A stretch of 64,000 bases of DNA, taken from NCBI RefSeq assembly GCF_037042905.1, contig NC_087251.1, positions 33,172,001 through 33,236,000 of the forward strand, given 5' to 3'. Shown piece by piece: positions 41,971 to 60,229 of this stretch. The translations under genes were made by a program, and so were the position numbers. How positions within the stretch are numbered: the first letter of the stretch is position 1; each line of letters begins with the position of its first letter. The DNA comes from Lytechinus pictus. Lineage: Eukaryota. Under the pieces are notes generated by a model. That model was given only the letters and a program-made list of their open reading frames with translations. It had not been told where the DNA came from and ran no database searches.

Positions 41971-42339
41971 CTGTACATAACTTATATACCAATTGATGGG
42001 ACTACAACACACACTATAAATATTAAAGAAACCTAGACCTATCACCGATAGAACACGGAGCGCCTGATCCCTATAGTTGGGGTTAAGTTACCTAGAGTCT
42101 GGAATAGGTTTATAGGACTATTTAAAGGACTGGCTTTGCTCAGACCCAATAGCTGCCACCACGCCAAGACAATAATAATGAATTAAAGGCAACAATCAAG
42201 CGGAGTACAAGGTTACGTGTGGTTTATTGAGATTGTCGCGGCCAAGAGGCCGATCACATTTAAGTATCGATATCACATAATTTACAACACGATTACTAAA
42301 TTAACATAACACATAACACACTTGGGCGTGTCATCGGAA

Positions 42340-43282
42340 ATGAAGTCATATCTAGATGACTATTTTGGGAAAATTAATGAACGGTTGTCATCGTTGGAAC
42401 GCCAAATTACTGTACAGAATACAAGACTTGAACATAGCTAGAATGGAGGAATTGGTTGCATCGCTAAATTTTCAAGCAAAAGAAATGGATGATTTGAAAG
42501 CGAAACTGAGGAAAGTACAAGAGGAAAGTGATATGAAGGGGGAAAAACTTGAAGCTGAAATTGATAGACTTTCCGCTTACATATCGCGAGAGAACCTCGT
42601 CTTTTTGGGAATCCCAGAAAGTGGAGAGGGTGATGAGAATACGAAGGAAACTTTGAATAGATTTCTCGTCGAGAAACTGAAGTTGAGACAAGATTTTGTT
42701 AAACAAATTGAATATCAACGAGTTCATCGGGTGCAAGCTATACACAGACCACGCCCCATCAAAGCACGGTTCCTTAGATTTGCAGACAAGTTGACAATTG
42801 ACAAGAATGCTAAATTGTTGAAGGGGAGTAAGATGTACATTGCACAAGATCTGCCCAAACGAATTCGAGAAGAAAGGAAAGCGCAGGCACCGGCCTTGAA
42901 AGCGGCACGGAACGCAGGGAAGCTTGCTTATTTCTCACGGGCGGAGCCGACTAAACTCTTCGTCGCTGGAAAATGGATCCCACGGGAGGACCAAGTGGAG
43001 CTCATCGGAATATGGGGGAAACAGAGTGGAGCAGGAATGAATAACGCCTCCCTGCAGATACATCGGGATCAGGCAGGAGTTAGGATGGAGCGGAATGGAG
43101 GAATACAACGAGGAAAAGCAGGTGACAGTGCACCGTTTACAGCGAGGAAGATATGGGCAAGGAGTGACGAGGGTCTGACCGAAAACGGCATCGAAGCAAT
43201 GGAAAGCACCGGCGCTGAAGCAACGCAACATGAGGGATATCTCGCAGGAGCAGTAGGAGGAGAAAACGTCAAAGAATCGTAA
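42340..43282 (+). CDS. LINE ORF1p-like protein (coiled coil + RRM + CTD, L1/transposase_22-like), frameshifted near 42430
   Basis: MKSYLDDYFGKINERLSSLERQITVQNTRL from ATG 42340 joins the 42356 frame ...SRENLVFLGIPE...YQRVHRV...RPRPIKARFLRFADK...IAQDLPKRIREERK, typical ORF1p RRM/CTD motifs. Confidence 0.8.
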
Positions 43283-45334
43283 TTCTGTAAATATTTTCAG
43301 TAATAAAGGAAAATTAAAGCCGATAGGATTACTGGATGTGGAAGCTGTACGGAGGAGATAGGCCCTAAGGAATACAAGCAGTTACAGAAGCTAAGAGTAA
43401 GAAGGAGAAAGTGAAAGTTTGAGGAATAAACAGACCTGATGTCAACCATGCCATCGAAAAGTAAGATTTGTCTCATCTCTTGTTTCTTGTTTAATATACC
43501 ATTCTCAGTTGCTGATAAATATATAACGAATTACACGTTTCCGTTTTCTCTATACTAGACGAGGAAGCATTCGTCGCTTTAAATGTTATTTTGATGACTA
43601 TACGTTAAAAAGTCGATGAATTACTCATCTTATAACAATATACCGTCATTTCTCCTAAAGAAGAAGATAAAAGAATTGTAAAGAAGAATTTGAGCTGAGT
43701 ATTTGGAAGATATAGGAAAGCGATCATGAATTCGAAGCCAAAATATTAGTTCACTAACATCGGATGCAAGTATCATCATTTACTGAAGGAAATACGTCAA
43801 CAACAACCAAAAAAAAAATACGAAAAGGAAAGAAGAAGAACACTAAAAAGATAAGACGCTGTGTTGAGCGATGTATGTGATAGTAATTCTTTTAATTTGG
43901 ATACATTGCATCAGATTTATTTGGTATTGAATATAAGGCTTCACAGTATATAATGTATATGTTTTATTCAATGGCAAAAGTAACCATAGTTGTGAAAGGT
44001 TTGAATAGACTCCCCCCAAAAAGGAGTTATATGGACGGTTGAAGGGTCGAAGAATATTGTTCCCCATCTCAAATTAAAAGTAAATCAGAGAGAAGTCCTT
44101 TCTTTGTTGATGTGTTTCACTCTTCTCATCACTTTGAAATATTAAAGACATTAAACTGTGGCTTAAAGCCCATGAAATTACTCGAATCTATGATAACAAT
44201 TGCTCCAATTTTATCTGGATTCAAGGCAATGCCATCTAATTCAAAGCTATAAGAATTAGTCAAACAAAATAATGATTTTTAATTTGTTTAAAAATTTTGG
44301 CGAGGTAGTTATTGATTGAATAAGATAAGTCACTTGTCCATGAGGAAGAACACGATATACTCTCAAGGAATTATGCACACAAAAAAGTAATGATAAAAAA
44401 AAAAACTAAAGGGTGTGAAGAAAGGAAGCACTTTTTTTTTTTTTATTATTATTAATCAGAGTAAAAAAATATATATGAAATACAACAAGAAACGGACTGG
44501 AGTGTAATTTTGACACAATCTTTGGTTCTTGTAAATAAATAAAAATGAGGGGAAAATTGAATGTCATGTCAGTTATAATTGATCATACCACATCGGATGG
44601 AATTTTGCTGTTTGTACGTTATTCGGAAAAATAATAATAATGACGAATGTATTTAGAGGACAAGAATGGACAGAGAAGAAGAATTTGAAGTTTAAATTTC
44701 TTGATCTATATATTGGTCGATGTAGTAACTTTCAAGAAGTTTATTAATTAGCGTGAAAACACATTCCTCTGTGTATAGGCCTATATGTGTGTGTGTGTGG
44801 TGTTTTTTTTTTTTTTTCATCATGTCATGCCTTTAAGAAGAGTTGAAGAAAATATGAAATATATTTTCTTGTTTCATACATAATCATTAATAGATCAGTT
44901 TAGGTCATACATGCATGTAAGGCATGTTATTTAAGCTGGATGAAGCCCTTTTTCTTTATTTAAACCTGCAAACAAACTGAAGCTTAAGCTTATATTTTAA
45001 ACACACACACACACTACATAGGAAAGTTATTGATTCATAACGGGTTTTTTTTTTAAGACGACAGATTGTAACTGATTGGAATTTTGTTGCTGTTTTTTTT
45101 TCAAACTAGGTTAATGTTGAAAAATAATGAATAGAAAACCTTCATCTAAAGTTTATTTGATCATAATACTACGTGTAAAATGGAAATAAAGGATGAGAGG
45201 AATGGAGGAAAAAATGCCATTGATGACTATTTCGATTTTTGATACTTTTATGAAATATTGACTCATGATTTTTAGAAAAAGAAAAAGGTAATAGGAAGTG
45301 CATGTAGAAAATGAAGGAGGGAAATGAAGAAAAA

Positions 45335-48300
45335 CTAGATTTTAATTCGTCATGAGGACGAATTAGGTGGTCTGTCATGATTTTTCATTCATTGTCGGCT
45401 AATGTTGTATAAAATGAATCCCGGGAATGAATCATTCAGATATGATTGATAATCTTGATCATAGACATTAAAGGAATAAATTTTGACCATTGCTAAATGT
45501 GATTATAAATGTAGTGATGACAATCGTGATGATTATAATGATGGTGGTGATAATGCAATATGTTAAATACGAAATAAAGTTAGGAGCACGTAAAATGCCT
45601 TAAAAACTCTCCAAAAATCTCAGACGATTTTACCGAAATTGGCTTTCCAAAATTGCGCAATGAAAGGGGCCTCAATTTTCACAGCAGCTAATTTTTAATC
45701 GACAGTTTGATGTTTTTTATGCAAAATCTTGTTAAAAATTCTTTGTACTTTGAGCATTTTTTTTTTAAATTTCACCCACTGACATTTCACAATGTCAGTG
45801 GGTATTAATTTCACAGAATACTTGAAAATTCATAGGTGATACTTTTTAAAAGCTAAAATATCTTAAATATTTTTGTTCAAATTTTCTGCTACATTTCAAT
45901 AGATTTAAATGAGAAGTTTCATAATGCTATAATTTCACAGCATTCACATCAAAACTCATCAGTGATGTATTTGATAAAAGAACCAGATTTTTTTGTAAAT
46001 GTTTGCCAAATTTCTGAAAATTTTTAAACATTTCAAATAATATTTTCCGTCAAAACTTTTCAATATCCATTTATTAATTGTGTATGACTTTGACATTTAC
46101 TTGAAAATTCTTTCTTGATGATTTTTACTGAATAAAGTCAGGTAAAAGATTCAAATACTGGCAATTTTCCCGCAAAATTTCGGGAACATGTGTAATTAAC
46201 TAAATTGCACAATTTTTTTCATTTCACAGAAGGTACCTGAAAATTTGTTATACGTTATATTAAGTAAAAATGAACAAACAGAAAAAAATCCAGGAATTTC
46301 CGGAAAATGTCCGGAATGAAAATGTTCAACCCAATAGCGTTTAAATATTGCAGCGTTTACTAAAAAATACATAAATGATGTTTTACAATGTTAAAATTGC
46401 CCCTTAAAAAGTTCCGGCAAAATTACAAAAATTGTCCTACATAAAAAAATGCAAGGCAAGTGGGCTTGATATTTTCAGGAAGACTGTACAATTGGTTAAT
46501 AAAACATTTCTCTAAAGAATTTCGCAAAAATTACGTCCAGAAAAAATTTGCAAAAATTTAAACACATCATAACACATTGATGCTGTGGTCAAAAGTCAAA
46601 ATTATTCCACGTTATTTGTAGAGAAATGTCTTCACTATATCATATCAAAATTTGGAAGAAAACTGACCAGTAATAACGAAGATACGGTCAAGTACGTTGA
46701 CGTTTGTTGCGGAAATATGTAATTTTCACTAATAACTTAAAATTGACAAAATCTCCAAATGAGATATTGAATATATAAAAGAGTGAGAAAAAATTTGGGG
46801 TCAACGGACTCCCTGAAGAGCTACAGTGAATTTTATATAGGCATATTTTTGCCCATTTACGCGCGCGTAATGCAAATTTGAATGGACGCGCATTCCCGTA
46901 TTATTGGTCGTAAGAGGCTGAATGAGGTATCAAATTAATCAGAAGATAATGGGCAATGGAAAGACATAAAATAAATGATGACTCAAAGATGCATACCGAT
47001 GGTAGGTGCAAAAACGCGCACGCATACCTGTGCGCGCGCAAATTCTTGACATGCTCAAAATGACCAGAAACGTACCCAAACTTGACCACGGTCCATTTAG
47101 GGAAACTTAAAATTTTGACGCGCGCGTACGTGCGCGTTGTGACCTTTGCATGACCTTTGGTGATATGTCCTGATGACCTTTTCAAAATGGCCGCCAAATT
47201 CCTTCCAAATCAGTGTTTTAACAGGTAAATCCTTAAATATATATACAAATAAGGCCTGCAATGTATCCAACTATATGTTTTCATGTTCATTGAGCACTAA
47301 AATATATGAATCAGATAAGTTGAGCCATTGGAAATGAGGATTTTTGGTAAAAAAACAGCGTTTTGGGGTCATTTTTGTAAAAATTGCTCCCAAATCACAA
47401 TTTATACATAAAACCTCAATAATCTATTCATCTACAGTTTTTCATATGTCTAAATATTTGTTTTCATGGCCACTTATTTCAACAATAGATAAAACAGACA
47501 TGTTTTGTGATTTTGTACTGTCATTTTTAATAGAAAAATAATGTTTTCTGAAATTTTTGGAAAAAATTACTAAATACAGCCTGCAAATATGCAACTACAG
47601 CTTGTAATCTGGCTATAACCTTGTTTTTCTTGCTATTTGTAAGTTACAATCAATTGTATTGTCTGAATTAAAAGAATGTGTATTTTAGTGGATTTTCGTC
47701 AAATATGACCCCCCAAAAAAAAAAAAAAAAAAACATGAATACAATGAAGGATTTCACGCGCATGCATTTAATGCAACTATTGCTGTATATATATATATAT
47801 ATATATATATACTGTATAAGTGGATATTTTCAGTTTTTCGCAGAGTATCTCCCATCAATTATAACTAAATGAAAAAAAATACAAGAGGACAAGTGTACAT
47901 ATTTTATGTTGTCAAACATTTGGGAAAACAAGTTCCCGCTAATTTCACAAAAATAGCATTTTGGCACTATTTTACAATTGAACGGCATAAAATGGGTGTC
48001 CAATCTATCTTGTTAGATATTTTTAAGAGTGCTGAGTTCAAATATTAGCGTAAGTAAAAGATTAGAAGCATCGTCATGGTGTTAATTAAAAAACAAGAAA
48101 AAAAAAAGATTTTGAAAAATATCGGTATACAGAATACATACTTTGAGCCTATAGCATATTGGGGAACATTTCATTACCATTTGCATTCCACAAGAACAAT
48201 TGACCAAAACTCACTTTTACCATGGTAACTGTCAGATAAAACAGCGATTGTTAAACTTCTGACAAGTTTTTTTTTATGAAACCCTGGGTGGCAGAAAATA

Positions 48301-49255
48301 TAATTCAGCACCAACGTTTAAATGGTTCATAGCCAATAGATTCAGTACTTGCTTGGGAGTTTATGTTATGGCATGATATTCAATCAAAATATTTCATCAA
48401 TTAAGTTCATATCAATAAATTCACAGTCTCTATAATTATTCAGAATGAATGTTTCACATGCTGTTTTATACTACATAATATCTACATAATAATGGGTTAT
48501 CTTGCCATATTCCCCATGATAATGATGATGGAACTGCTGGGCATCAATAAAAATGGGTGATAAGGATACTGTAGACAAAACATGAATAAGAATGGAAATT
48601 TCCCTTTATCCTCCAGACATATTCATGTAAGTTGAGTTTAAGAAGATAATGTATACAGGTAATTATATGTAAGACATAGACTTGCTAAGAGTCAGACTCC
48701 CAAAACTGACTACTTCTGAAAATCAGACAATAATCATGATAATAGCAACAATGCCTGTCTGTGTATTATCACTTGGGGGACGATTTGTAATTTTTTTCAA
48801 AAGCTAGACTAACATAGTTATTGATGGAACTAAGTTCCAGGAAGAATATACTTATAAGTGGTTAATTTAAAAAGCAAGGAAATATGCATGGGATCTATGA
48901 AATGCTTGGTAAATTCTTTTCCCTTATGTTTGACAGCTTAAGATATGTACATAAGTCTGGTATTTGATATTATTTTTTTCATTTTGTTATAAATAATGTG
49001 GATATATTCTCAGTAAGACTGAAAACATTCATATATATATATATATATATATTTATTTATTTATTCCATAAAACGATCAACCTTTTTTGTATATCCAACC
49101 CCCATTTTTCTCAAGTCTTACTTCACTTCATAAACTGACCAATTCATGGTCTTTTGAGAACATTACAGACTGTCAAAAGAACCAGAAATCAGAGACAAAA
49201 AAATCATGAAGGTCCCACATATAGGGGTTGGACATACATATTTTACGGAATGCCC

Positions 49256-49286
<31 letters not shown>

Positions 49287-51952
49287 CACACAGCAATAGT
49301 TGCATGACTTGTATGCATCTGATATCCTGCTTTGAAATTATTTATTTTTTGGGAAGGGGGGGGGGGGGTAATATTTGACAAAAATCCACTAAAATACATA
49401 TTCTTTTCATTAAGATGATACAATTGATATTTGTAACTGTCTACCAAATCACAATAAAAAACGAGGTTATACCGTTATAGTCAACTTACAAGTTGTAGTT
49501 AGATGAATATATGCAGTATGTATTCAGTCACTTTTACCCAAAAAATACAGAAAATGTGATTTTTGACTGAAAATGACTGTACAAAAGACCAAAACATGTA
49601 TGTTTTATGTATTGTTGGACTCAGTGGCCATGAAAACATGTATTTACACATATAATAAACTATAGATGAACAGATAATCAAGTTCTATGTACAAAAAATT
49701 GTCATTTGGGAGCAAATTTTACCAAAAATGGCCCCAAAACGCTGTTTTTTACCAAAAATCCTCATTTTAAATGGCTCAACTTATCTGATTCATATATTTT
49801 AGTGCTCAATGACCATGAAAACATATAGTTGGATACATTGCAGGCCTTATTTGTGTATATATTTAAGGATTTACCTGTTAAAACACTGATTTGGAAGGAA
49901 TTTGGCGGCCATTTTGAAAAATCGCTTGGAACCAATATCAAACTACATCTTAGGTCAAAATGGTTGTCAGATTTGGGTTCAGCAGCAAAAATGGCAATAG
50001 AATCCACCCGTTTGAAATTGAATATCCAAAAAAAAGGTTTTATTTGCCCACCCCTATTAAGAGTCAAATGTGGCATGAAATCATATCTCCTATTCATACT
50101 CTATTCGAATATGAAAAGAAAAATTGGGGTCAACGGACTCCCTGAAGAGCTACAGTGAATTTTATATAGGCATATTTTTGCCCATTTACGCGCGCGTAAT
50201 GCAAATTTGAATGGACGCGCATTCCCGTATTATTGGTCGTAAGAGGCTGAATGAGGTATCAAATTAATCAGAAGATAATGGGCAATGAAAAGACATAAAA
50301 TAAATGATGACTCAAAGATGCATACCGATGGTAGGTGCAAAAACGCGCACGCATACCTGTGCGCGCGCAAATTCTTGACATGCTCAAAATGACCAGAAAC
50401 GTACCCAAACTTGACCACGGTCCATTTAGGGAAACTTAAAATTTTGACGCGCGCGTACGTGCGCGTCGTGACCTTTGCATGACCTCTGGTGATATGTCCT
50501 GATGACCTGTCGCCTGAACTTGATATGATGCAAATATGGATGATTTTTTATGATTAGTTGCGATGATATGATCAATCATTTAATTTTACAAAATGGCGCC
50601 TAGATGACGTCATCATGATTTGATAACCTTGAAAAGATTCGATTCCCATGTCCATAATGATGCCCATACATGACATGAAAATCAAGGAAATTGACATGCC
50701 CGATGTTGAGATAGAGGTGGACAAAGATTTGGCAATAAAAATAAAGAAAATTCTGACGAATATAATAGGTGATCTATCATCTTAATGACAGACCACCTAA
50801 AAAGGACAAAAAAAAAAAAAAAAAGGGGGTCCAGCGAGGTTTGAACAACCGAACCCTGGTATACCAGTCAGGTGTGTTATCCAGTCGGCCACAGTGTGTT
50901 TGACAAGCACAGAGAGCAAAATAGGAAACATATTGTCAACTTGACATTGAATGTACATTTTTGCAATTCCAAATTGGCATGATGACGAAACTCTACAAAT
51001 TCTAGTTTTGAGAATAGTACAAGCTTTAAAATGGAAGAGTGGAGATATTGTCTAAAGGATACATTCTAAGCTAAAACATATTGAAAATTTGGCGAGAACA
51101 GACCAAGATTTACGGAATTAAAATCAATTTAAATGACTGTGGTGAAATCATGAAACAGAAAACACTTGTTTTTAGTTCCGACGCCATTTTGATGACGTCA
51201 CGATGTAATTAAGAGTCAAATGTGGCATGAAATCATATCTCCTATTCATACTCTATTCGAATATGAAAAGAAAAATTGGGGTCAACGGACTCCCTGAAGA
51301 GCTACAGTGAATTTTATATAGGCATATTTTTGCCCATTTACGCGCGCGTAATGCAAATTTGAATGGACGCGCATTCCCGTATTATTGGTCGTAAGAGGCT
51401 GAATGTGGTATCAAATTAATCAGAAGATAATGGGCAATGGAAAGACATAAAATAAATGATGACTCAAAGATGCATACCGATGGTAGGTGCAAAAACGCGC
51501 ACGCATACCTGTGCGCGCGCAAATTCTTGACATGCTCAAAATGACCAGAAACGTACCCAAACTTGACCACGGTCCATTTAGGGAAACTTAAAATTTTGAC
51601 GCGCGCGTACGTGCGCGTCGTGACCTTTGCATGACCTCTGGTGATATGTCCTGATGACCTGTCGCCTGAACTTGATATGATGCAAATATGGATGATTTTT
51701 GATGATTAGTTGCGATGATATGATCAATCATTTAATTTTACAAAATGGCGCCTAGATGACGTCATCATGATTTAATAACCTTGAAAAGATTCGATTCCCA
51801 TGTCCATAATGATGCCCATACATGACATGAAAATCAAGGAAATTGACATGCCCGATTTTGAGATAGAGGTGGACAAAGATTTGGCAATAAAAATAAAGAA
51901 AATTCTGACGAATATAATAGGTGATCTGTCATCTTAATGACAGACCACCTAA
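45335..51952 (-). mobile_element. Stacked Helentron/HINE (DINE-1-like) non-autonomous rolling-circle elements
   Basis: Minus-strand 5' ends TTAGGTGGTCTGTCAT-TAAG-ATGAYAGATCACCT (subTIR plus its inverted copy) at 51952 and 50800; one 3' end ATGACAGACCACC + hairpin TAATTCGTC-CTCAT-GACGAATTA + AAATCTAGTT at 45378-45333; shared ~390-bp core at 46790, 50118 and 51270. Confidence 0.8.
47179..50056. mobile_element. Long-TIR (hAT-like, TAGGGGTGGGC terminus) element nested in the Helentron stack, left end truncated
   Basis: 47179-~47930 is the reverse complement of ~48915-49919; the right arm continues to GCCCACCCCTA at 50056; the matching outer ~135 bp is missing on the left. Confidence 0.7.
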
Positions 51953-52101
51953 CTAGTTCCCAAAATTTGTGGGGGTCTTTTCCGCTCATCATGTCACACC
52001 TGAGACGAGAGACGACACTTTCGTGTAAAATATGAAATATATTAATTCTGTTTCACATTATCTAGTTTGATGGAATATAATTTATGTTATTTATGTTGGC
52101 A

Positions 52102-52830
52102 ATCAAACTGCATGTAAATTATCAGCAATTAAAGACAGATTAGTGTAATTCTAATACTACATTCGTTGATAAATAACAAAAGAAACTAGGTCAATTATAG
52201 ATTGTTGTTGATAAGAGGTTGCGGGTGATTTGCATATCTTGTTACTTATTGAAGAAGCGCCTCTGATACAGCAATAACCTATTTGTAGGTTGATGCCATG
52301 TAGTTTGAAATCAATGACCTCATCACATTTACATGTTTCAAATGAAGCGTATATATAGACACACCCAGTTCAAAAGAATGAATTCTATAGGCCATAGGAA
52401 AAAGAGATGATACAACTGAAGAGGAATCTTAATTGCTCTTTTTAATTGCAGCGTATAGTCATTGATATCAAACTGCATGGTATTTATCAGCAATTAAAGA
52501 CAGATTTGTGTAATTCTAATACTACATTCGTTGATAAATAACAAAAGAAACTAGGTCAGTTATAGATTGTAGTTGATAAGAGGTTGCGGCTGATTTGCAT
52601 ATTTTGTTATATATTTGAAGAAGCGCCTCTGATACAGCAATAACCTATTTGTATGTTGATACCATGTAGTTTGAAATCAATGACCTCATCACAGTCATGT
52701 TTCAAATGAAGCGTATATATGGACACACCCAGTTCAAAAGAATGAATTCTATAGGTCATAGGAAAAAGAGATGATACAACTCAAGAGGAATCTTGTTCTT
52801 CTTCTTCTTTTTAATTGCAGTGTATAGGTT
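52102..52830. repeat. 365-bp tandem duplication in the inter-ORF spacer
   Basis: ATCAAACTGCATG...GAGGAATCTT units start at 52102 and 52467. Confidence 0.9.
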
Positions 52831-54397
52831 TGATTATTCTATGTAATCAACGTAATTGGTAGAAAATATTTTGATAGGGTAAGGAGAGGAATGGAAGGAG
52901 GAATCGCTGGAGTATATAATTGTTAATGGCAATTGCTACAGTATGACTCCTTTCTTTCTTCTCTCTCCCCCTCTTTCCCTTTTCTGCAAGATATATTGTG
53001 CGATTGACATGCATATTTTAAAGAAAGATCCAATGGTTAGAGTGGCAATTGGTGTAATGTGTAAATTCCATTCTGTTGATTTGAAAAATTCAACTTGCGC
53101 TTACTTAAAGAGACATTCTTCAGAACTTTAGAATCTAATTTTGAACTGGACGTCTGGAATGAATGTTGATAAGACGCTAATACTTTAAAGGCGTCGTACA
53201 GTAAACAATAGTCCTCTGGTATGTTCTTTTACACGATTGTTTATTCTTGTTAATGTCATTTAAAAACGACTGCAATTTCCTTTATTCCTTGTAAATGTTT
53301 AAGATGAAAGATTCCAAATGATTCAGCATGTTCAATATAATCCGACAGTGTATTATAAGAAATAATGATATATGGTCGAGTGGCCACATTAACTCGATTG
53401 TAATGGCAATCAGTGAATCCACTGGTATTTTAATAGACATTAGAATGAAAAGGAATGAAAAGCAAATATTTCAGAGACAAAACACAATAATTCTTGTAAA
53501 GAGGGTGTGTTATAATACGCCTCACGTGTATTCAATAGATTGTTAAAACATAATGCAAATGATAAGTCTGTATAATGCAAATGAGGTGGGGGAGAATCTC
53601 GTCAAGCATGCGTTTAATTAATTCGAAATAAGTATACGAAGATTCCTTTTCTCTTCCTACACCATTTAGGTGAATGCAATGTCTGCTTAAAGATTCAGTG
53701 GTATATTTGATTAGATAATAGGTAACCATGATTACATAACCTTACTGATCATGGTTTGAAAATCTTAATTGAATCGTTGGTGGGATCTCATATACTCTTT
53801 TAAAATCAAACTGAATTAGAATGAATGTATCTTAGATGCAAATTTCGAAAAGGTTTAAGGTTCCAATAGTGGTCCTTTTGTATTATCCTTTTCGGTCTTA
53901 AAGGAGAAGGTTTTCAAAAGAATGTAGATAGAGAAGTTGCAAATCAATTGGGTAAACATTGAACTTTTAATCCATATCTTAGTATGTGGGTCGCCGGTAT
54001 TTAGGGCATGAATATATAGTCGAGAGGCAATTTCCTCAGGATAATGTTGTAGTCCACAGGTTTTTTTTTTCTCTCTTTATTTTCCTTTGCTCATTATTGA
54101 CTTACCTTCAAAATAAATATCAAGTTAGGGAGAGGGGTTGGCGAGACATCATGAAGATGTCTAAGACATGTAAGAGGGTTTTCGTTTTAGACACTTCCTT
54201 TATAGGAAGATCTCCCTTGATGGTCTTGCTTGTTGATGTTTGTTTTATGTGCACTTTGTTTTTCGTTTCCTATTTTCTTTCAGGGTCAGTTGGCAGTGGC
54301 ATTTTGATCATGATCAGATTTACATGTAGGCCGGGCGGACAGGGTGCGGCGCTCTTCCACTTCTCATCCCACGATTTATTATCTTGTCCATACCCCT

Positions 54398-57300
54398 GTG
54401 TTTAATTCTTTAATCTGCAATTTCATATCTTTAAATGTTAAGGGAATTCGAGAACGTCATAAGAGGCAAAATATATTTAAATGGTGTAAGGATAAAAAAG
54501 GGCATATTATTTTTCTCCAGGAAACTTTTAGCACTCAAGATATTGTTAGTAATTGGAGTTCCATGTGGGATGGCTTTTGTATTTTTAGTTACGGTACAAA
54601 CCACGGTAAAGGCGTTATGATTTTAGTAGATGAAGGGTTTGATATCTCAATAAAACATACAATCATCGATACAGGAGGTAGATACATTTTTATTATTGGA
54701 TCTTTGCAAAATCAGGAAGTAATATTGGGAAATGTTTATTTCCCTGTTAGTAGTAAAGTGCACGAGCAACTTGAGTTTTTGGATTCTATTATTAAGATTT
54801 TAGGAAGAAAGGAGTTCCAAAATAAACCTTTTATTATAGGAGGAGACTTCAATATGGTTAGGGATATTTATTTAGATTATGATGGAAAAAACGTAAACAA
54901 GAAGCAATCTAAACTTAGTTCAATGTTCGAAAATTTTCTTACGGATTATAAGGCCTTAGATATATGGCGTGTTAAAAATGATTCCAAGAAACAATATACC
55001 TATCATCAAGGAAATCCGTATATGCAAAGTCGATTGGATTACTGGGTGGTTTCAGATATTTTAGAAGAGAAAGTGTTGAATTGTAAAATAATACCTTCAT
55101 TATCACCTGATCACTCAGCAATAGAACTCAATATTAATTTTAATCATATGGTCAAACCAACGATTAAGACTGGTTATTGGAAATTTAATAACAGTTTATG
55201 TAAGGACGAAGAATATGTTAAAAGTATGAAGGAGGAAATTATTCGTTTGAAACAGATGTTATCAATAGAGATTATGGACAGCAGAATTTTATGGGATTAT
55301 GTTAAAATGGAAATCCGAAGTTTTACTAGGAAGTACTCAAAGAAAAAGGCAAAAGAAAGAAGAGAAAAGATTACAAAGTTGGAAAAGGAAATTGTAAAAT
55401 TAGAAGAAGAACTGCAACAAAGACCAAGTAATAAAAATAAGGATTCAAATGACATTTTAACCAGGAAAAGAAATGAATTAAAAGCAATTTATACTTATGT
55501 TAATGAAGGTATAAAAATCAGATCTCGAGCGCCGTGGTTTGAAAGTGGGGAAAGGGAAACCGCATATTTTAAACAATTGACAGATTCTAATGGGAAAAAA
55601 TGTGTAATTAAAAAACTTAAGGTGAATGAAAATATAATTAGTGATGAAATTAATATTTTAAATGAAATCCGAAAGTTTTATTCATCATTATACGCTAAAT
55701 CTGAGGCAGGATTATGCGACGATAATACGTTTTTTCCCAATAGCTTACCCAAACTAACAAAAAATCAGAGTAATCACTGTGAAGGAAAAATAAACCAAGG
55801 TGATTGTATTGAAATCTTAAAAGAAATGCAACTTAATAAATCTCCGGGGAATGATGGACTGAGCGTCGAGTTTTACATTACATTTTGGCATGTTGTATAG
55901 GTGATTTAGTTATTAACGGGCTTAATGATAGTTTGATTCATAAAGAATTATCGCCCTCTCAGAAGCAAGCAGTAATTACACTAATACACAAGGGGGATAA
56001 AGACCCTACAGTCATTAGCAATTACAGACCCATTTCACTTCTCAATGTAGATTATAAAATTCTCACTAAGATACTTTCTAAAAGAATAAAAGTGATTCTG
56101 AGTAACATTATTTCAGTTGACCAGGTAGGGTATTTAAATGACAGAAATATTGGTGAAGCAGTAAGATTAATTAATGACATGATATTTCATACCTCACATT
56201 TTAATAAATCGGGTTATTTATTAGCAATCGATTTTGAAAAGGCTTTCGATTCAATTTCACACGCTTTTCTTCAAAAGGCACTTTGTTCATTCGGTTTTGG
56301 AACGATGTTTAGGGATTGGGTCAAAGTAATTTACACTAACACACTATGCTGCGTTTTCAATGGAGGGAGATCAACTGGCTATTTCGATGTTGAGCGGGGG
56401 CTAAGGCAGGGGGACCCCCTGTCCCCATATCTTTTTATATTGTGTATAGAGTGTTTAACTCACTCTATTCGAAACGATAATTCAGTAAGGGGTATTTGCT
56501 TTGGCGATACGGAAATCAAGCAGGTTCTTTATGCTGATGACATGACAATATTTGTGCAAGATTTAGACTCTATAGATAGACTATACATAATCCTTGAGAA
56601 GTTCAAGAAAATATCTGGACTGAAAATTAATAAAAATAAAACTTTCATTTTGCCTCTAGGGCCTCCTGTTCCACCGGGGAACAGCTTTCCATTCGGTAAA
56701 AGAGTTGATATTGTGAAAATACTGGGTATTTACTTTTCACTCAATCCTGATGTCGCTGAAGAAATGAATTTCAAAGAAATTTTGAGCAAAATAAAAAAGT
56801 TATTAAATTGGTGGAAACAACGAGATCTCACTTTGATAGGAAAAATTCATTTGCTTAAAACGTATGCGTTTTCCAAATTGACTTATGTGAGCTCCCTATC
56901 TTCAGTTCCAGACTGGGTTTTCAAAGAAATTGATGATACATGTTTTGACTTTTTATGGCGGGGGAAAGACAAAATAAAAAGAAATACTTTATATCTGGAT
57001 TACCGACAAGGTGGGCTAAAAATGCTCAATTTCAAACTATTTATAATGGTACAAAGAGTGATGTGGATTAAAAGATTAGTTACTGGTGACCAGAGAGCAA
57101 AGTGGAAAAGATATTTTAAATTTCTCCTGAGAACATTTGGTGGTCTTTTAATATTTTACTGCAATTTTTCCCCTGATATGGTCGATGTTAAATTACCAAA
57201 ATATTACCGAGAAATGTTATGTATTTGGTCTGATATGAATATTTTTATTAAAAAAGATACAAATAGTAAAAGAAATGAAATTTTCTTTAATAATAAGTGT

Positions 57301-58163
57301 ATTATGAAGAAAGGAAAAACATTTTTTCATGAAAATCTGTTCCTCAAAAATATTTTTAAATTTCATCACATTACAGATGTTAAGGGGGCACTTAAGCCGG
57401 ATAATTATTTCAGATGTATGGGATTGGATGAGGAGGAAGTATCAGTTATTCAAGAAATATTTGCACATACCCCCAGAGAATGGAAAGACAGATTAAGAAG
57501 GAATACTTCAGTGGACGGCTTGAATATTGAATTTGTCTTTTATGAGAAAAAAATTCAATTCGACTCGGTTACTTCCAAAAATCTATATAGAGGGTGTATA
57601 AAACAAATTGCTGAACAACCAGTTAGTTTTCATAACTTACATTATTATATAATCTGTCAAATAAAGAAATTGAGAAAACATTTTATCGTCCTAGATTTAG
57701 TACGTTGGATAACAAATTGAGAGAATTTCAATTTAAAATGCTATACAATATCATCTTTCTGAATCATCACTTATACAGGTTTCATTTTATAGCAAGTGAT
57801 AAATGTTCCTTCTGTAGAAAATACGAAGAAACATATAAGCATTTATTTTTTGAATGTGAAAAAGTAGGAGATTTGTGGGTACGGAGTAGTAATTTGTTTG
57901 GCCTTCCAATTCTAAAAAAACTAAGCTGGATGGAAATCCATATTGGTCTCGAGGAAACAACCGAAAACATACAATTACTTAATCATATCATTTTGCTAAT
58001 CAAATATTTAATATATCAAGGGAGAGGGAAGGGTAAACCACCAACTCCTGAAGAGATAAAGGAAAAGTTACTTATTAGCAAAGAAGAAGAAAAGAAAATT
58101 GCATTAGAGCGTAATACGTTAACGCGACACTATAAGAAATGGGAATATTTAAAGGTTTTATAA
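54398..58163 (+). CDS. L1/Tx1-clade ORF2p (APE endonuclease + RT + CCHC/zf-RVT), frameshifts near 55890 and 57645
   Basis: EN motifs SLNVKG, IFLQET, GGDFN, SRLDYW, PDHSA; GYWKFNNSL linker; KSPGNDGL; NYRPISLLNVDYKIL, IDFEKAFD, RGLRQGDPLSPYLF, YADDMT, KILGI; C-terminal CSFC...HLFFEC. Confidence 0.95.
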
Positions 58164-58700
58164 ACATTAACCAAAATAAAAAGGATGGGAAAGGGAGGGG
58201 TGCCCCTCGTCTGCCCGTGCATGGAATCGATCGATCACTGTCGCTGTAAACTGACCTCTGTCCTGTCCTGTCCTTTGCTTTTTTTTTTTTTTTTTTTTTT
58301 TCTCTCTCTCTCTCCGTTATGTGGATGGTGTTTTTTTTTCTGTCTATTTCTCCCGTTTCTTGTTGTTGGTGTGTTAGTTTGTTCAGCTTTGGGGTCTGAT
58401 AGGGGGGGGGGGGGGGCTCATGGGACGGGAGAATACATTCATTCTTTAAATTTGCGTAGTTGTTACGTCTTTGTTTTATTATTTGCTTTATAGCTGCATA
58501 CATAAGTTGTTGAAATGTTATTTTTGCATGAGTTGGGATTATGTCTCTTTTCTGATACAATTTGCCTGCTATGTTTATTACACTGTTATTTAATTTGTGT
58601 ATTGCACTGCTGCAATTATAATTTTGTTCTATATTTTCTTGATTATGTATGTATGAAATTTATTTGAATGAATAATAAAGATCACTACAAAACAAAAAAC
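58164..58700 (+). other. 3' UTR and A-rich tail of the L1/Tx1 element
   Basis: Poly(T) and poly(G) tracts, AATAAA near 58674, tail ACTACAAAACAAAAAAC. Confidence 0.75.
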
Positions 58701-60229
58701 ATTGGCGCGAGGCTTACTATGATATGTAATTGCTCCGTCAGGGGCGATTTTTTTTTTCATTTTTGACAATGGAAATGACAATTATTAGGCAGAAAAGTGC
58801 CTTCATCGTTTACTTTTGTCCTTAAATAATTTATCATTTTTCTACTTTTAGGGGGGCACATTGGGGGGGGGGGGGCAAAATCTCGTTTTGCCCCCCAAAA
58901 TTTTTTTTGGGGGGCAAGTGCCCCCCCCCCTCGCTTCCGGCGCCCGTGCTCTCAGAAGATGCAGTTACTATAAATTGTTTAGCCATCATTTAAAAATAGA
59001 CTTGATAAGCATTAATTGGGAGAAGATTGCTTATGATTTTGAGCGATATTTTCGATTTTCGAGTGTTTTCATGGAATTGTTTTTTTTTTTTTGTTTTTCT
59101 TTTTGGCTGTCCACGATACACGTAACACCCCCTCCCTGCGTTGTCAATACTGTACATAGGCAGAAGTCTGTCCCCAAAGGTAGGGGGGACAATTAGGGCC
59201 TGGAAAATTTAACAAGCAAAAAACACTGAAAAAAAGTTATCACCCAAAATGGAAGGTCATTATGTAGGCCTATATTGTTTCGATTGTGAAGTGATGTATT
59301 TTTCTCCATCAAGACCAAAAATAGTAGGGGGACATTTGATATTGTGTCCCCCTACTATTTTTGGTAGGGGGGACACGTCCCCCCTGTCCCCCTGGGATTT
59401 CCGCCCATATGTGCATCTGTTTTTTGTCTGAAGGAGAGCAGCAATGGACATCTCTACTTCGATCGATGAACAGGCTCCTACAACATCGTTACGTTGGAGT
59501 ATTACTACCGGTAGTATAAGTAAAGTATCATGCTACCAAGATTGAAGAGCGCCAACTCCAACTCCACAACGCGAAAGTGACTCTCCATGTACGTCGATGT
59601 CCAGCATCAAGCCTGCTGAGCTAGTAACATACGGTACAGTAATCGGCGCCTGTACTGGTACTGTACCACGGCAGTATTCAGCGTGAACGACATCAAAATT
59701 CTTGAGTCAAATCAACAGACGTAATATCTTGGATAAATCTAGGACGTAAGCTGTACTTAAAGAGGTATGAATAACTGCAGCCGTTGTATTGTCTGTTCTT
59801 CGTTAAATCCCTAAAATGTTTATGAATTAGGTCCTTTTTAGACATGTTAGAAGATATGACCAGTCGTCCAAAGGCAAAGTTTATGATGAATGTGAGAGTG
59901 GGCGTGTTTGCATTGCGCAGGGTACCGGTACCGTACCCGGGGCCGGGTAGACAGCTGGCAGCCGTCTGTTTCGAGGAGTTTTTTTTAACATTTTTAATTT
60001 TTTTCTAAATTTCTCCTCCTACTATCCTAGTCCTACACAGACGGCTCGCGGCCCAATGCAGTTTCGCACCGGCCGATTACCAGCATACCTCATCACCAAT
60101 ATGATGGTGGGCCCCAAAAAAAGGCCCAAGGGCCAAGTCTGCGCACCTAACAATTTGAGTTAAGATTTAACATGAATTTCTTCTTATTTCACAAAATCTT
60201 TTAGTTAATAATGTTCCTTATATTATTAA

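Follow-up and report, generated by a model that had tools for sequence, protein, structure and literature searches.

The 64,000 nucleotides (nt) of Lytechinus pictus DNA analysed here (contig NC_087251.1, positions 33,172,001 to 33,236,000 of the forward strand; the whole stretch is called the window) hold an interrupted copy of a non-long-terminal-repeat (non-LTR) retrotransposon related to L1. Its second open reading frame (ORF2), which encodes an endonuclease and a reverse transcriptase (RT), lies between two mutually complementary sequences, a 5' arm shortly before the ORF2 start and a 3' arm shortly behind the ORF2 stop codon. An initial annotation, made from the letters of the window alone, had proposed that these arms pair in the RNA of the element and clamp ORF2 between them. 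The complementarity exists, is specific to the sense strand and is conserved, and we argue below that it is probably maintained by selection on the RNA.

RESULTS

The two arms form a strong sense-strand duplex around ORF2

Both arm sequences were recovered exactly, at 54281-54369 and 58183-58260, and the pairing previously worked out by hand, which engages 73 of the 3' arm's 78 nt, was reproduced by RNAduplex on the exact arms (-103.3 kcal/mol, as compared with -69.1 kcal/mol for their reverse-complement strands in the same program). In slightly wider segments the duplex comprises 62 Watson-Crick and 11 G:U pairs (-105.0 kcal/mol sense vs -72.9 kcal/mol antisense); an internal loop sets C against A twice, and there are four further mismatches and 13 bases in bulges. 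The initial statement that there are no A:C pairs is thus nearly but not strictly right and has to be corrected for the two C.A sites, one of which is a C:G pair in most other copies of the element. When the arms of the window are aligned as DNA with strand-neutral scores, they differ by nine G:U-type transitions and one A.C-type transition.

The duplex lies well beyond its controls: 150 shuffles of the 3' arm give a mean of -50.5 kcal/mol (standard deviation 5.3, best -71.0, z = -10.2), and 399 random pairs of segments 3.9 kb apart within the 64-kb window give a mean of -29.1 and a best value of -55.8 kcal/mol. It is absent from the repeat-finder output for the window; the finder scores Watson-Crick matches only. 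The 3' arm begins 19 nt after the stop codon at 58161-58163, in agreement with the distance of about 20 nt given before, and the 5' arm ends 31 nt, rather than about 28 nt, before the beginning of the endonuclease frame, taken here as the position that aligns with the ORF2 ATG of a sister family (54401). The 3.8-kb ORF2 does lie between the arms as proposed, but in the window copy it is broken into three frame pieces.

Each arm of the window's family also contains a perfect palindrome, GATCATGATC and GATCGATCGATC (54305-54314 and 58226-58237), which could give local hairpins or intermolecular contacts. Through a direct repeat (70%) between 54109-54138 and 58172-58201, the first part of the 3' arm (AGGGAGAGGGGT) recurs about 150 nt upstream of the 5' arm, and this copy could act as a local competitor for the 5' arm.

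A sister family has its own duplex at the same place

A search of the 812-Mb genome with a 5' probe gave 22 matches, all inside element copies: 12 in the window's own family (fam1), 11 of which keep the 5' arm, and 10 in a sister family (fam2). With a 3' probe we obtained 60 matches, and the 30 loci that were aligned are all element 3' ends; no free-standing copy of an arm was found in the genome with either probe. The conservation of the two arms among fam1 copies is given in Table 1. The exceptions among the 3' arms are L044 and L049, which differ at the outer end, and L051, which is deleted inside the arm.

The two families are 75% identical over 54260-58153. A BLAST comparison finds no similarity in the ORF1-ORF2 spacer or in most of the 3' untranslated region (UTR), and otherwise aligns only the last 35 nt. 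The layout of fam2 follows the same plan, with an unrelated spacer of ~4.5 kb that contains tandem units of ~450 bp. At the same place fam2 has a duplex of its own (57 Watson-Crick and 14 G:U pairs; -90.2 kcal/mol sense vs -57.2 kcal/mol antisense). Antisense pairing is likewise weaker than sense pairing in fam1 (-103 to -109 vs -69 to -81 kcal/mol) and in a third family, fam3, described below (-44 vs -33 kcal/mol), and the z-scores against shuffled sequences are -10.2, -7.8 and -4.8 for fam1, fam2 and fam3.

We compared the fam1 and fam2 duplexes by structure-guided alignment; plain sequence alignment mis-registers the duplex centre. Forty pairs are identical, 16 differ by a one-sided change through G:U (eight of the C/U type and eight of the A/G type), three differ by a double change, and 14 are paired in one family only. 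To set this against neutral divergence, the observed numbers of transitions and transversions were placed at random on the arms of either family, with 300 trials per direction. The simulated arms retain on average -52 or -42 kcal/mol, and in neither direction does any of the 300 trials reach the value observed in the other family.

Helices at ORF2 borders recur in more distant families

The 200 residues at either end of fam2 ORF2 were used to search the genome for further families; the matches were paired by position, and slices at the ORF2 borders were read. Counting fam2, seven more L1-like families of the same genome pair the region upstream of ORF2 with the region of its stop codon, with ORF2 N-termini that are 39-71% identical (39-52% identical to fam2 in families A, B, C, D and G); complementarity at these positions in related families, on which the initial annotation had staked its proposal, is thus present. 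All six of the further family groups have such a helix. It measures about 20 bp across the stop codon in fam3 (two copies), 10 bp plus a second stretch of 9-11 bp in family A, 8+9 bp inside the last 26 nt of ORF2 in family B, 16 bp plus nested stretches of 14 and 7 bp in family C (in all three copies read), 14 bp perfect, or 18 bp with two U:G pairs, across the stop codon in family D, and 13 bp perfect in family G; for A, B, D and G a single copy stands for the family. The sequences of the helices are unrelated between families, except that fam1, fam2, fam3 and C share a GGGAGAG-like motif in their 3' arms. On the side facing ORF2, the 5' arm stops 9-70 nt short of the ORF2 start, and the 3' arm begins anywhere from 26 nt inside ORF2 to 45 nt past its stop.

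As a control, we paired the 130 nt before the start with the 133 nt around the stop in all combinations of families, leaving out fam1 x fam2 and fam2 x fam1 as relatives. The eight cognate pairs (-109, -93.5, -44.4, -60.7, -53.3, -49.8, -55.8 and -57.4 kcal/mol) are stronger than the 88 non-cognate pairs (mean -38.4, standard deviation 8.4, best -59.8 kcal/mol; Mann-Whitney p = 1.7e-5), and their longest perfect runs (8, 9, 9, 10, 8, 16, 14 and 13) exceed those of the non-cognate pairs (mean 7.2, maximum 10; p = 5.7e-5). Among 15 pairings the cognate one ranks 1, 2, 4, 1, 2, 1, 2 and 1. Since fam3, B and D are not outstanding by energy when taken singly, the case rests on the whole set and on the long perfect runs. 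These position-restricted segments replaced two controls that we discarded: the best ungapped Watson-Crick run over flanks of 300 x 350 nt, which was dominated by poly(T):poly(A) matches, and the pairing energy of flanks masked for low complexity, in which the arms were partly masked and the G-rich 3' flanks paired with everything. Loci L073, L075 and L077 were left unscored, their guessed 3' ends not being element sequence.

Differences between the arms favour pairing in sense RNA

Aligning each 5' arm to the reverse complement of its own 3' arm with strand-neutral scores, we counted 25 transitions that leave G:U in the sense RNA and 5 that leave A.C in fam1-3, and 11 and 1 in families A, B, C, D and G. 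Pooled over the eight families the ratio is 36:6 (p = 2.8e-6), with the reservation that the families are related and the events not fully independent. Variants carried by at most two fam1 copies (dead copies) at paired positions served as the neutral control (n = 56). Of these rare variants, 38 break a pair, and transitions at Watson-Crick pairs are split 13 G:U to 11 A.C, so that mutation bias does not explain the G:U excess among fixed differences. Fixed and private transitions differ in their pattern (Fisher p = 0.008), as do lineage differences and private variants in the ratio of kept to broken pairs (19:14 vs 18:38, p = 0.026). The initial suggestion that the asymmetry between G:U and A:C points to selection for pairing in sense RNA is borne out by this comparison of 36:6 with 13:11, and the divergence simulations and the cognate test agree with it.

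The helix appears to accompany a multi-kilobase spacer between ORF1 and ORF2

Two L1-like control families with 34-35% N-terminal identity to fam2 have no helix at these positions (-37.1 and -36.9 kcal/mol, with no perfect run above 7). One of the two, S1, has only a few tens of nt between the end of ORF1 and ORF2, and in several distant families ORF1 and ORF2 lie about 0.1 kb apart. As measured from the positions of ORF1 and ORF2 matches, the distance is ~4.4-4.5 kb in fam1 and fam2, 4.0 kb in A, 3.9 kb in C, 3.2-4.3 kb in D and 4.9 kb in G (+/-0.2 kb); among the listed matches there was no ORF1 near fam3 or B. As far as tested, the helix thus appears to go with the long spacer. All ORF1-ORF2 pairs that could be matched in fam1 and fam2 keep the spacer, at 4.4-4.8 kb (11 kb where it is interrupted). 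With its 3.2-4.9 kb devoid of long open frames, the inter-ORF spacer differs greatly from that of human L1, which measures 63 nt, and the full-text literature searched, which leaves subscription journals largely outside, yielded no L1-like element with a multi-kilobase ORF1-ORF2 spacer.

The start of ORF2 is itself unusual in fam1. Where fam2 has the ORF2 ATG, all 11 of the 11 fam1 copies (L001-L011; window 54398-54416) have TTT, and in the window no in-frame ATG occurs from the ORF2 start region back to the stop at 54311-54313. Despite having no ORF2 ATG, fam1 looks like an active family, with dozens of copies at 91-99% identity. In fam1 and fam2 there are upstream frames that cross the 5' arm and terminate at the ORF2 start or close to it. 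No frame of that kind was seen when the regions upstream of ORF2 in families C, D and G were translated, and we rejected these frames as a feature of the system, as they are missing from C, D and G and expected by chance in pyrimidine-rich sequence.

Layout and class of the element

The features of the window copy are collected in Table 1. Its open frame at 42356-43282 has the same C-terminus as the ORF1 of copy L063. We had considered that the window copy is 5'-truncated at 51951, but this was rejected: the copy is interrupted there and its homology resumes at 45336. The insertion responsible holds a single open frame of 112 aa on the minus strand (49762-50100). Other fam1 copies show the same layout without the insertion: behind an ORF1 of ~345 aa comes a spacer of ~4.4 kb that has no long open frames but contains the 365-bp tandem units, and then the pyrimidine tract and the 5' arm. 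Both fam1 and fam2 have an ORF of about 310-345 aa upstream of ORF2, and relatives of it are found beside many ORF2s; a comparison of ORF1 with Pfam gave no family above threshold. In the window, the tandem units of the spacer number two and occupy 52102-52827; just 5' of the 5' arm stands a pyrimidine tract with an AG (about 54240-54282), the tract being conserved in fam1 and fam2. An Rfam E-value scan of 51900-58760 returned only two chance-level microRNA matches, at 52879-52973, and no ribozyme.

Table 1. Features of the retrotransposon copy in the window
Feature	Positions	Strand	Observation
ORF1 remnant (open frame 42356-43282) and first 2 kb of ORF-less spacer	42320-45336	+	collinear with 4 other copies, 97-98% identity
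6.6-kb foreign insertion interrupting the spacer, not part of the element	45337-51950	.	homology to other copies jumps from 45336 to 51951
Second part of ORF1-ORF2 spacer	51951-54280	+	homology to other copies
5' arm of long-range duplex	54281-54369	+	near-invariant in 11/11 fam1 copies reaching it
ORF2 (endonuclease, reverse transcriptase, zinc-binding tail)	54401-58163	+	frames 54314-55900, 55855-57720, 57636-58163
3' arm of long-range duplex	58183-58260	+	complete in 27/30 aligned 3' ends
Poly(T), then CT-repeat tract	58279-58315	+	adjoins 3' arm; length varies among copies
Run of 15 G in 3' UTR	58402-58416	+	G runs also in 3' flanks of other families
AATAAA signal and short A-rich tail, element end	58674-58699	+	copies stop here, flanks differ

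The domains of ORF2 match Pfam families PF03372 (2.6e-13), PF00078 (4.6e-39) and PF13966 (3.6e-8). Judged by sequence, the element is L1-like, since its RT finds its best solved-structure match in human LINE-1 (long interspersed element-1) ORF2p (1.8e-38; R2 follows at 7e-15), it has a poly(A) tail and its insertion sites are varied. At 28 fam1 and 8 fam2 ends, AATAAA and an A-rich tail are followed by unrelated flanks, and the 5' extents of the copies differ. The label 'L1/Tx1' of the initial annotation can accordingly be narrowed to L1-like; as for the single target site of Tx1-type elements, 24 of the 28 fam1 ends have unrelated flanks and 4 of the 28 adjoin the same repeat. These four (L024, L037, L038 and L042) share one 3' flank (TATCCGCCGGGTTTGACGCGG...) and all sit at one point within another repeat family, a hint of target preference or of a composite unit.

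Because fam1 copies end at window positions 58697-58704, which makes the 3' UTR 535 nt long, the 3' arm is the start of the 3' UTR and not the end of the element, which is ~440 nt away. At 58261-58278 the window copy is without the extra poly(T) run plus ~40 nt that L026 and most copies have between the 3' arm and the CT repeats. All helix-bearing families (window; L070, L081, L083, L085, L087 and L089) have a long run of 10-28 G in the 3' UTR, and families A, D and G also have G-rich tracts upstream of the 5' arm. Some 600 nt downstream of the element there is a perfect 21-nt inverted repeat with a 10-nt spacer (59314-59365).

DISCUSSION

The strand-specific conservation of the two arms leads us to lean, on comparative sequence evidence, towards the reading that they form a selected sense-RNA duplex closing ORF2 into a loop, and that this duplex is a selected cis-element of a clade of L1-like elements. 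We infer that the duplex forms in cells. The full duplex is held by the minimum-energy fold of 54150-58420 (4271 nt, fam1), where the 5' arm has 73 of its 89 nt in pairs, exclusively with the 3' arm, although fold predictions at a length of ~4.3 kb are unreliable.

Several observations weigh against this reading. Column-by-column covariation is thin, with only three double changes between fam1 and fam2, and at its centre the duplex was built anew instead of co-varying, 14 positions pairing in one family only. The window's own subfamily carries a common G-to-A change that breaks one C:G pair. The fam3 helix is weak and ranks fourth of 15, those of fam2, B and D rank second, and the offsets of the helices are not fixed, ranging over 9-70 nt at the start and from -26 to +45 nt at the stop. 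The link between helix and spacer rests on only two control families, and a single genome supplied every family; in runs labelled organism B, 7-33% of the sampled words were present, which says nothing about a second species. For fam2, the minimum-energy fold of the complete RNA lacks the duplex: each arm folds on its own nearby, and forcing the 71 fam2 pairs costs +24 kcal/mol. Such long predictions being unreliable, this still counts against a constitutive duplex in fam2, and it leaves room for a switch between local and long-range pairing. Finally, in three rRNA-depleted RNA runs carrying the same species label, 18, 6 and 8 reads, most of them partial, fell on the element, with none on the arms and no joints; a further run, X1, which was only presumed to be RNA, covers the stretch evenly as DNA would.

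The arms could instead have a template or particle function and mark those RNAs that contain a complete ORF2 of their own family, as a binding site for ORF2p or ORF1p, as a site of RNA dimerisation, or by switching the RNA, after the ribosomes are gone, into a closed form for reverse transcription. In a genome shared by many L1-like families, such a mark would make the choice of template family-specific, and it suits the family-specific helix sequences, most of which do not cross-pair, as well as the position of the purine-rich strand, which belongs to the 3' arm in fam1, fam2, fam3 and C and to the 5' arm in B and G, as a structural mark would allow. The palindromes of the fam1 arms are of the kind used for dimerisation of Ty1 RNA in the available text of PMC7969010. 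We nevertheless regard this explanation as rather unlikely: a helix of 13-75 bp is an odd site for one conserved protein, and no result distinguishes intramolecular from intermolecular pairing. Short fam1 copies also often start in poly(T) just 3' of the 3' arm, which could reflect an RT stop; about 10 of some 20 such copies start within 47 nt 3' of the arm (58261-58307). Of the four junctions read (L098-L101), two start in the first poly(T), one at the second, and one is rearranged. We set RT stalling at the duplex aside as evidence, the junctions being ambiguous; since the 5' ends gather in poly(T) and not at the helix base, microhomology joining explains these starts equally well.

A signal for RNA processing seems improbable to us. 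Here the helix would bring splice or cleavage sites together, so that ORF2 or the spacer is removed, a back-spliced circle arises or an RNase III-type nuclease finds its substrate. A pyrimidine tract with an AG does stand directly upstream of the outermost helix in fam1, fam2 and C, and the 5' arm of fam1 and fam2 starts with the donor-like AG|GTCAGT. However, the AG is missing from two older relatives (L073 and L079), families A and 3 have no comparable tract, and the arms lie inside the candidate splice sites, whereas back-splicing would place them outside. The matched ORF1-ORF2 pairs of fam1 and fam2, all with their spacer, include no spliced retrocopy, the Rfam scan was without a ribozyme, and the RNA runs, which had almost no reads on the element, contained no joints. 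It is more doubtful by far that the arms are an old inherited inverted duplication without function, its G:U excess due to adenosine-to-inosine (A-to-I) editing or strand-biased mutation. Editing turns A:U into G:U and never into A.C, and one dated change fits it, old fam1 copies having A and young ones G in GTC[A/G]CTG. A-to-G editing alone is insufficient, however, because the wobble changes between fam1 and fam2 are equally of the C/U and A/G types (8:8); private mutations are unbiased (13:11), neutral divergence destroys the duplex in 300 of 300 simulations, and simple inheritance of one repeat is inadequate because the helices of A, B, D and G are unrelated to those of fam1-3. The idea, raised by the initial annotation against itself, that two unrelated MITE (miniature inverted-repeat transposable element) or foldback copies landed on either side of ORF2 in the window copy has practically no chance of being right. 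In every copy that extends far enough, both arms stand at the same internal positions; the copies lie on various chromosomes and differ in their flanks, and the element continues for 440 nt past the 3' arm and for kilobases before the 5' arm; there are no solo arms. The MITE idea is excluded because the arms are internal and confined to these elements.

If the arms are indeed a selected RNA duplex, what would it do? The duplex would join the region 5' of the ORF2 start to the region at or after the stop, with the 3.8-kb ORF2 looped out. The ORF2 start would thereby be placed beside the end of the RNA that is proximal to the 3' UTR and poly(A), or beside ribosomes terminating at the ORF2 stop, and such proximity could allow internal or recycled initiation of ORF2. 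In families 3, B and D translating ribosomes would be expected to open the helix, because the 3' arm covers the stop or the last codons. We suggest tentatively, and with the balance tilted somewhat against it, that the duplex serves ORF2 translation. This role is favoured because fam1 has no ORF2 ATG, because looping has been raised for LINE-1, and because ordinary reinitiation after ORF1 is implausible across some 4 kb, ORF1 lying 3-5 kb upstream with an ORF-less spacer between. The spacer is kept in every full copy that was paired, and the RNA that is copied therefore carries it. In mammalian L1 it is established that ORF2p acts mainly on its own RNA (cis-preference). If cis-preference holds here too, ORF2 must be translated on this long RNA. 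A wider proposal, which is speculative and in our view unlikely to hold in full, is that the clade with the 3-5 kb spacer expresses or selects ORF2 by an RNA clamp, initiating from the 3' end or from recycled ribosomes, and that the family-specific helix is at the same time a barcode that restricts use to RNAs with a complete ORF2 of their own family.

Distant pairing that joins a start region to a 3' element is known from the 5'-3' cyclisation of flaviviruses and the 3' cap-independent elements of plant viruses, and it may serve as a working analogy for the proposed role. The viral motifs differ in being short kissing or cyclisation sequences at genome ends, and no factor-binding 3' element has been identified for the L1-like clamp. 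In back-spliced exons, intronic inverted repeats, usually repeats such as short interspersed elements (SINEs), flank the splice sites on the outside and make the intervening sequence a loop. The likeness is that arms kilobases apart loop out an interval; here no conserved pair of splice sites was found, and the arms are the element's own. In stringent LINEs the RT recognises local 3'-terminal stem-loops of its own RNA, which resembles our case in using structured RNA of the 3' UTR, but here the partner strand is 3.8 kb away and the 3' arm ~440 nt from the end.

The closest retroelement case, as far as the available text of its description goes, is Ty1, in which the short complementary CYC5 and CYC3 sequences near the RNA ends pair over kilobases and are needed for retromobility (PMC7969010). 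Both systems bring distant complementary sites of a retroelement RNA together. Ty1, however, is an LTR element with short terminal sites and transfer RNA-primed reverse transcription, whereas the present elements are non-LTR elements with internal arms that bracket ORF2 by 13-75 bp. For mammalian LINE-1 ORF2, termination-reinitiation has been proposed, and looping of the ORF1 stop to the ORF2 start was raised in a review, parts of which also report that the stop-restart of SART1 needs RNA structure near the restart site and that restart in caliciviruses can tolerate a non-AUG start codon (PMC5972666). For mouse L1, internal ribosome entry site (IRES) activity upstream of ORF2 is reported (PMC3592465). 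The common ground is that ORF2 of non-LTR elements is made by non-standard initiation. The ORFs of LINE-1 and SART1 are 63 nt apart or overlapping, and the portions of these sources at hand describe no start-stop pairing, whereas here 3-5 kb separate the ORFs and the start region finds its partner downstream of ORF2. The full-text literature searched, subscription journals being largely outside it, contains no description of a duplex bracketing ORF2 in a LINE.

The conserved pairing points to an undescribed control step in the use of ORF2 by these elements. How the ORF2 of non-LTR elements gets translated, and why ORF2p acts on its own RNA, are open questions in a field centred on mammalian L1. 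The eight families offer a natural variant series of one long-range helix, 13-75 bp long, with or without overlap of the stop codon and in one case without an AUG, and related families without the helix reside in the same genome, so that the question can be tested directly. An unusual L1 architecture with a multi-kilobase inter-ORF spacer is documented here, and the arms illustrate that annotation of LINE UTRs misses conserved structures whose halves lie kilobases apart. If the proposed role in ORF2 expression or selection is true, the clamp would be a base-paired physical basis for cis-preference.

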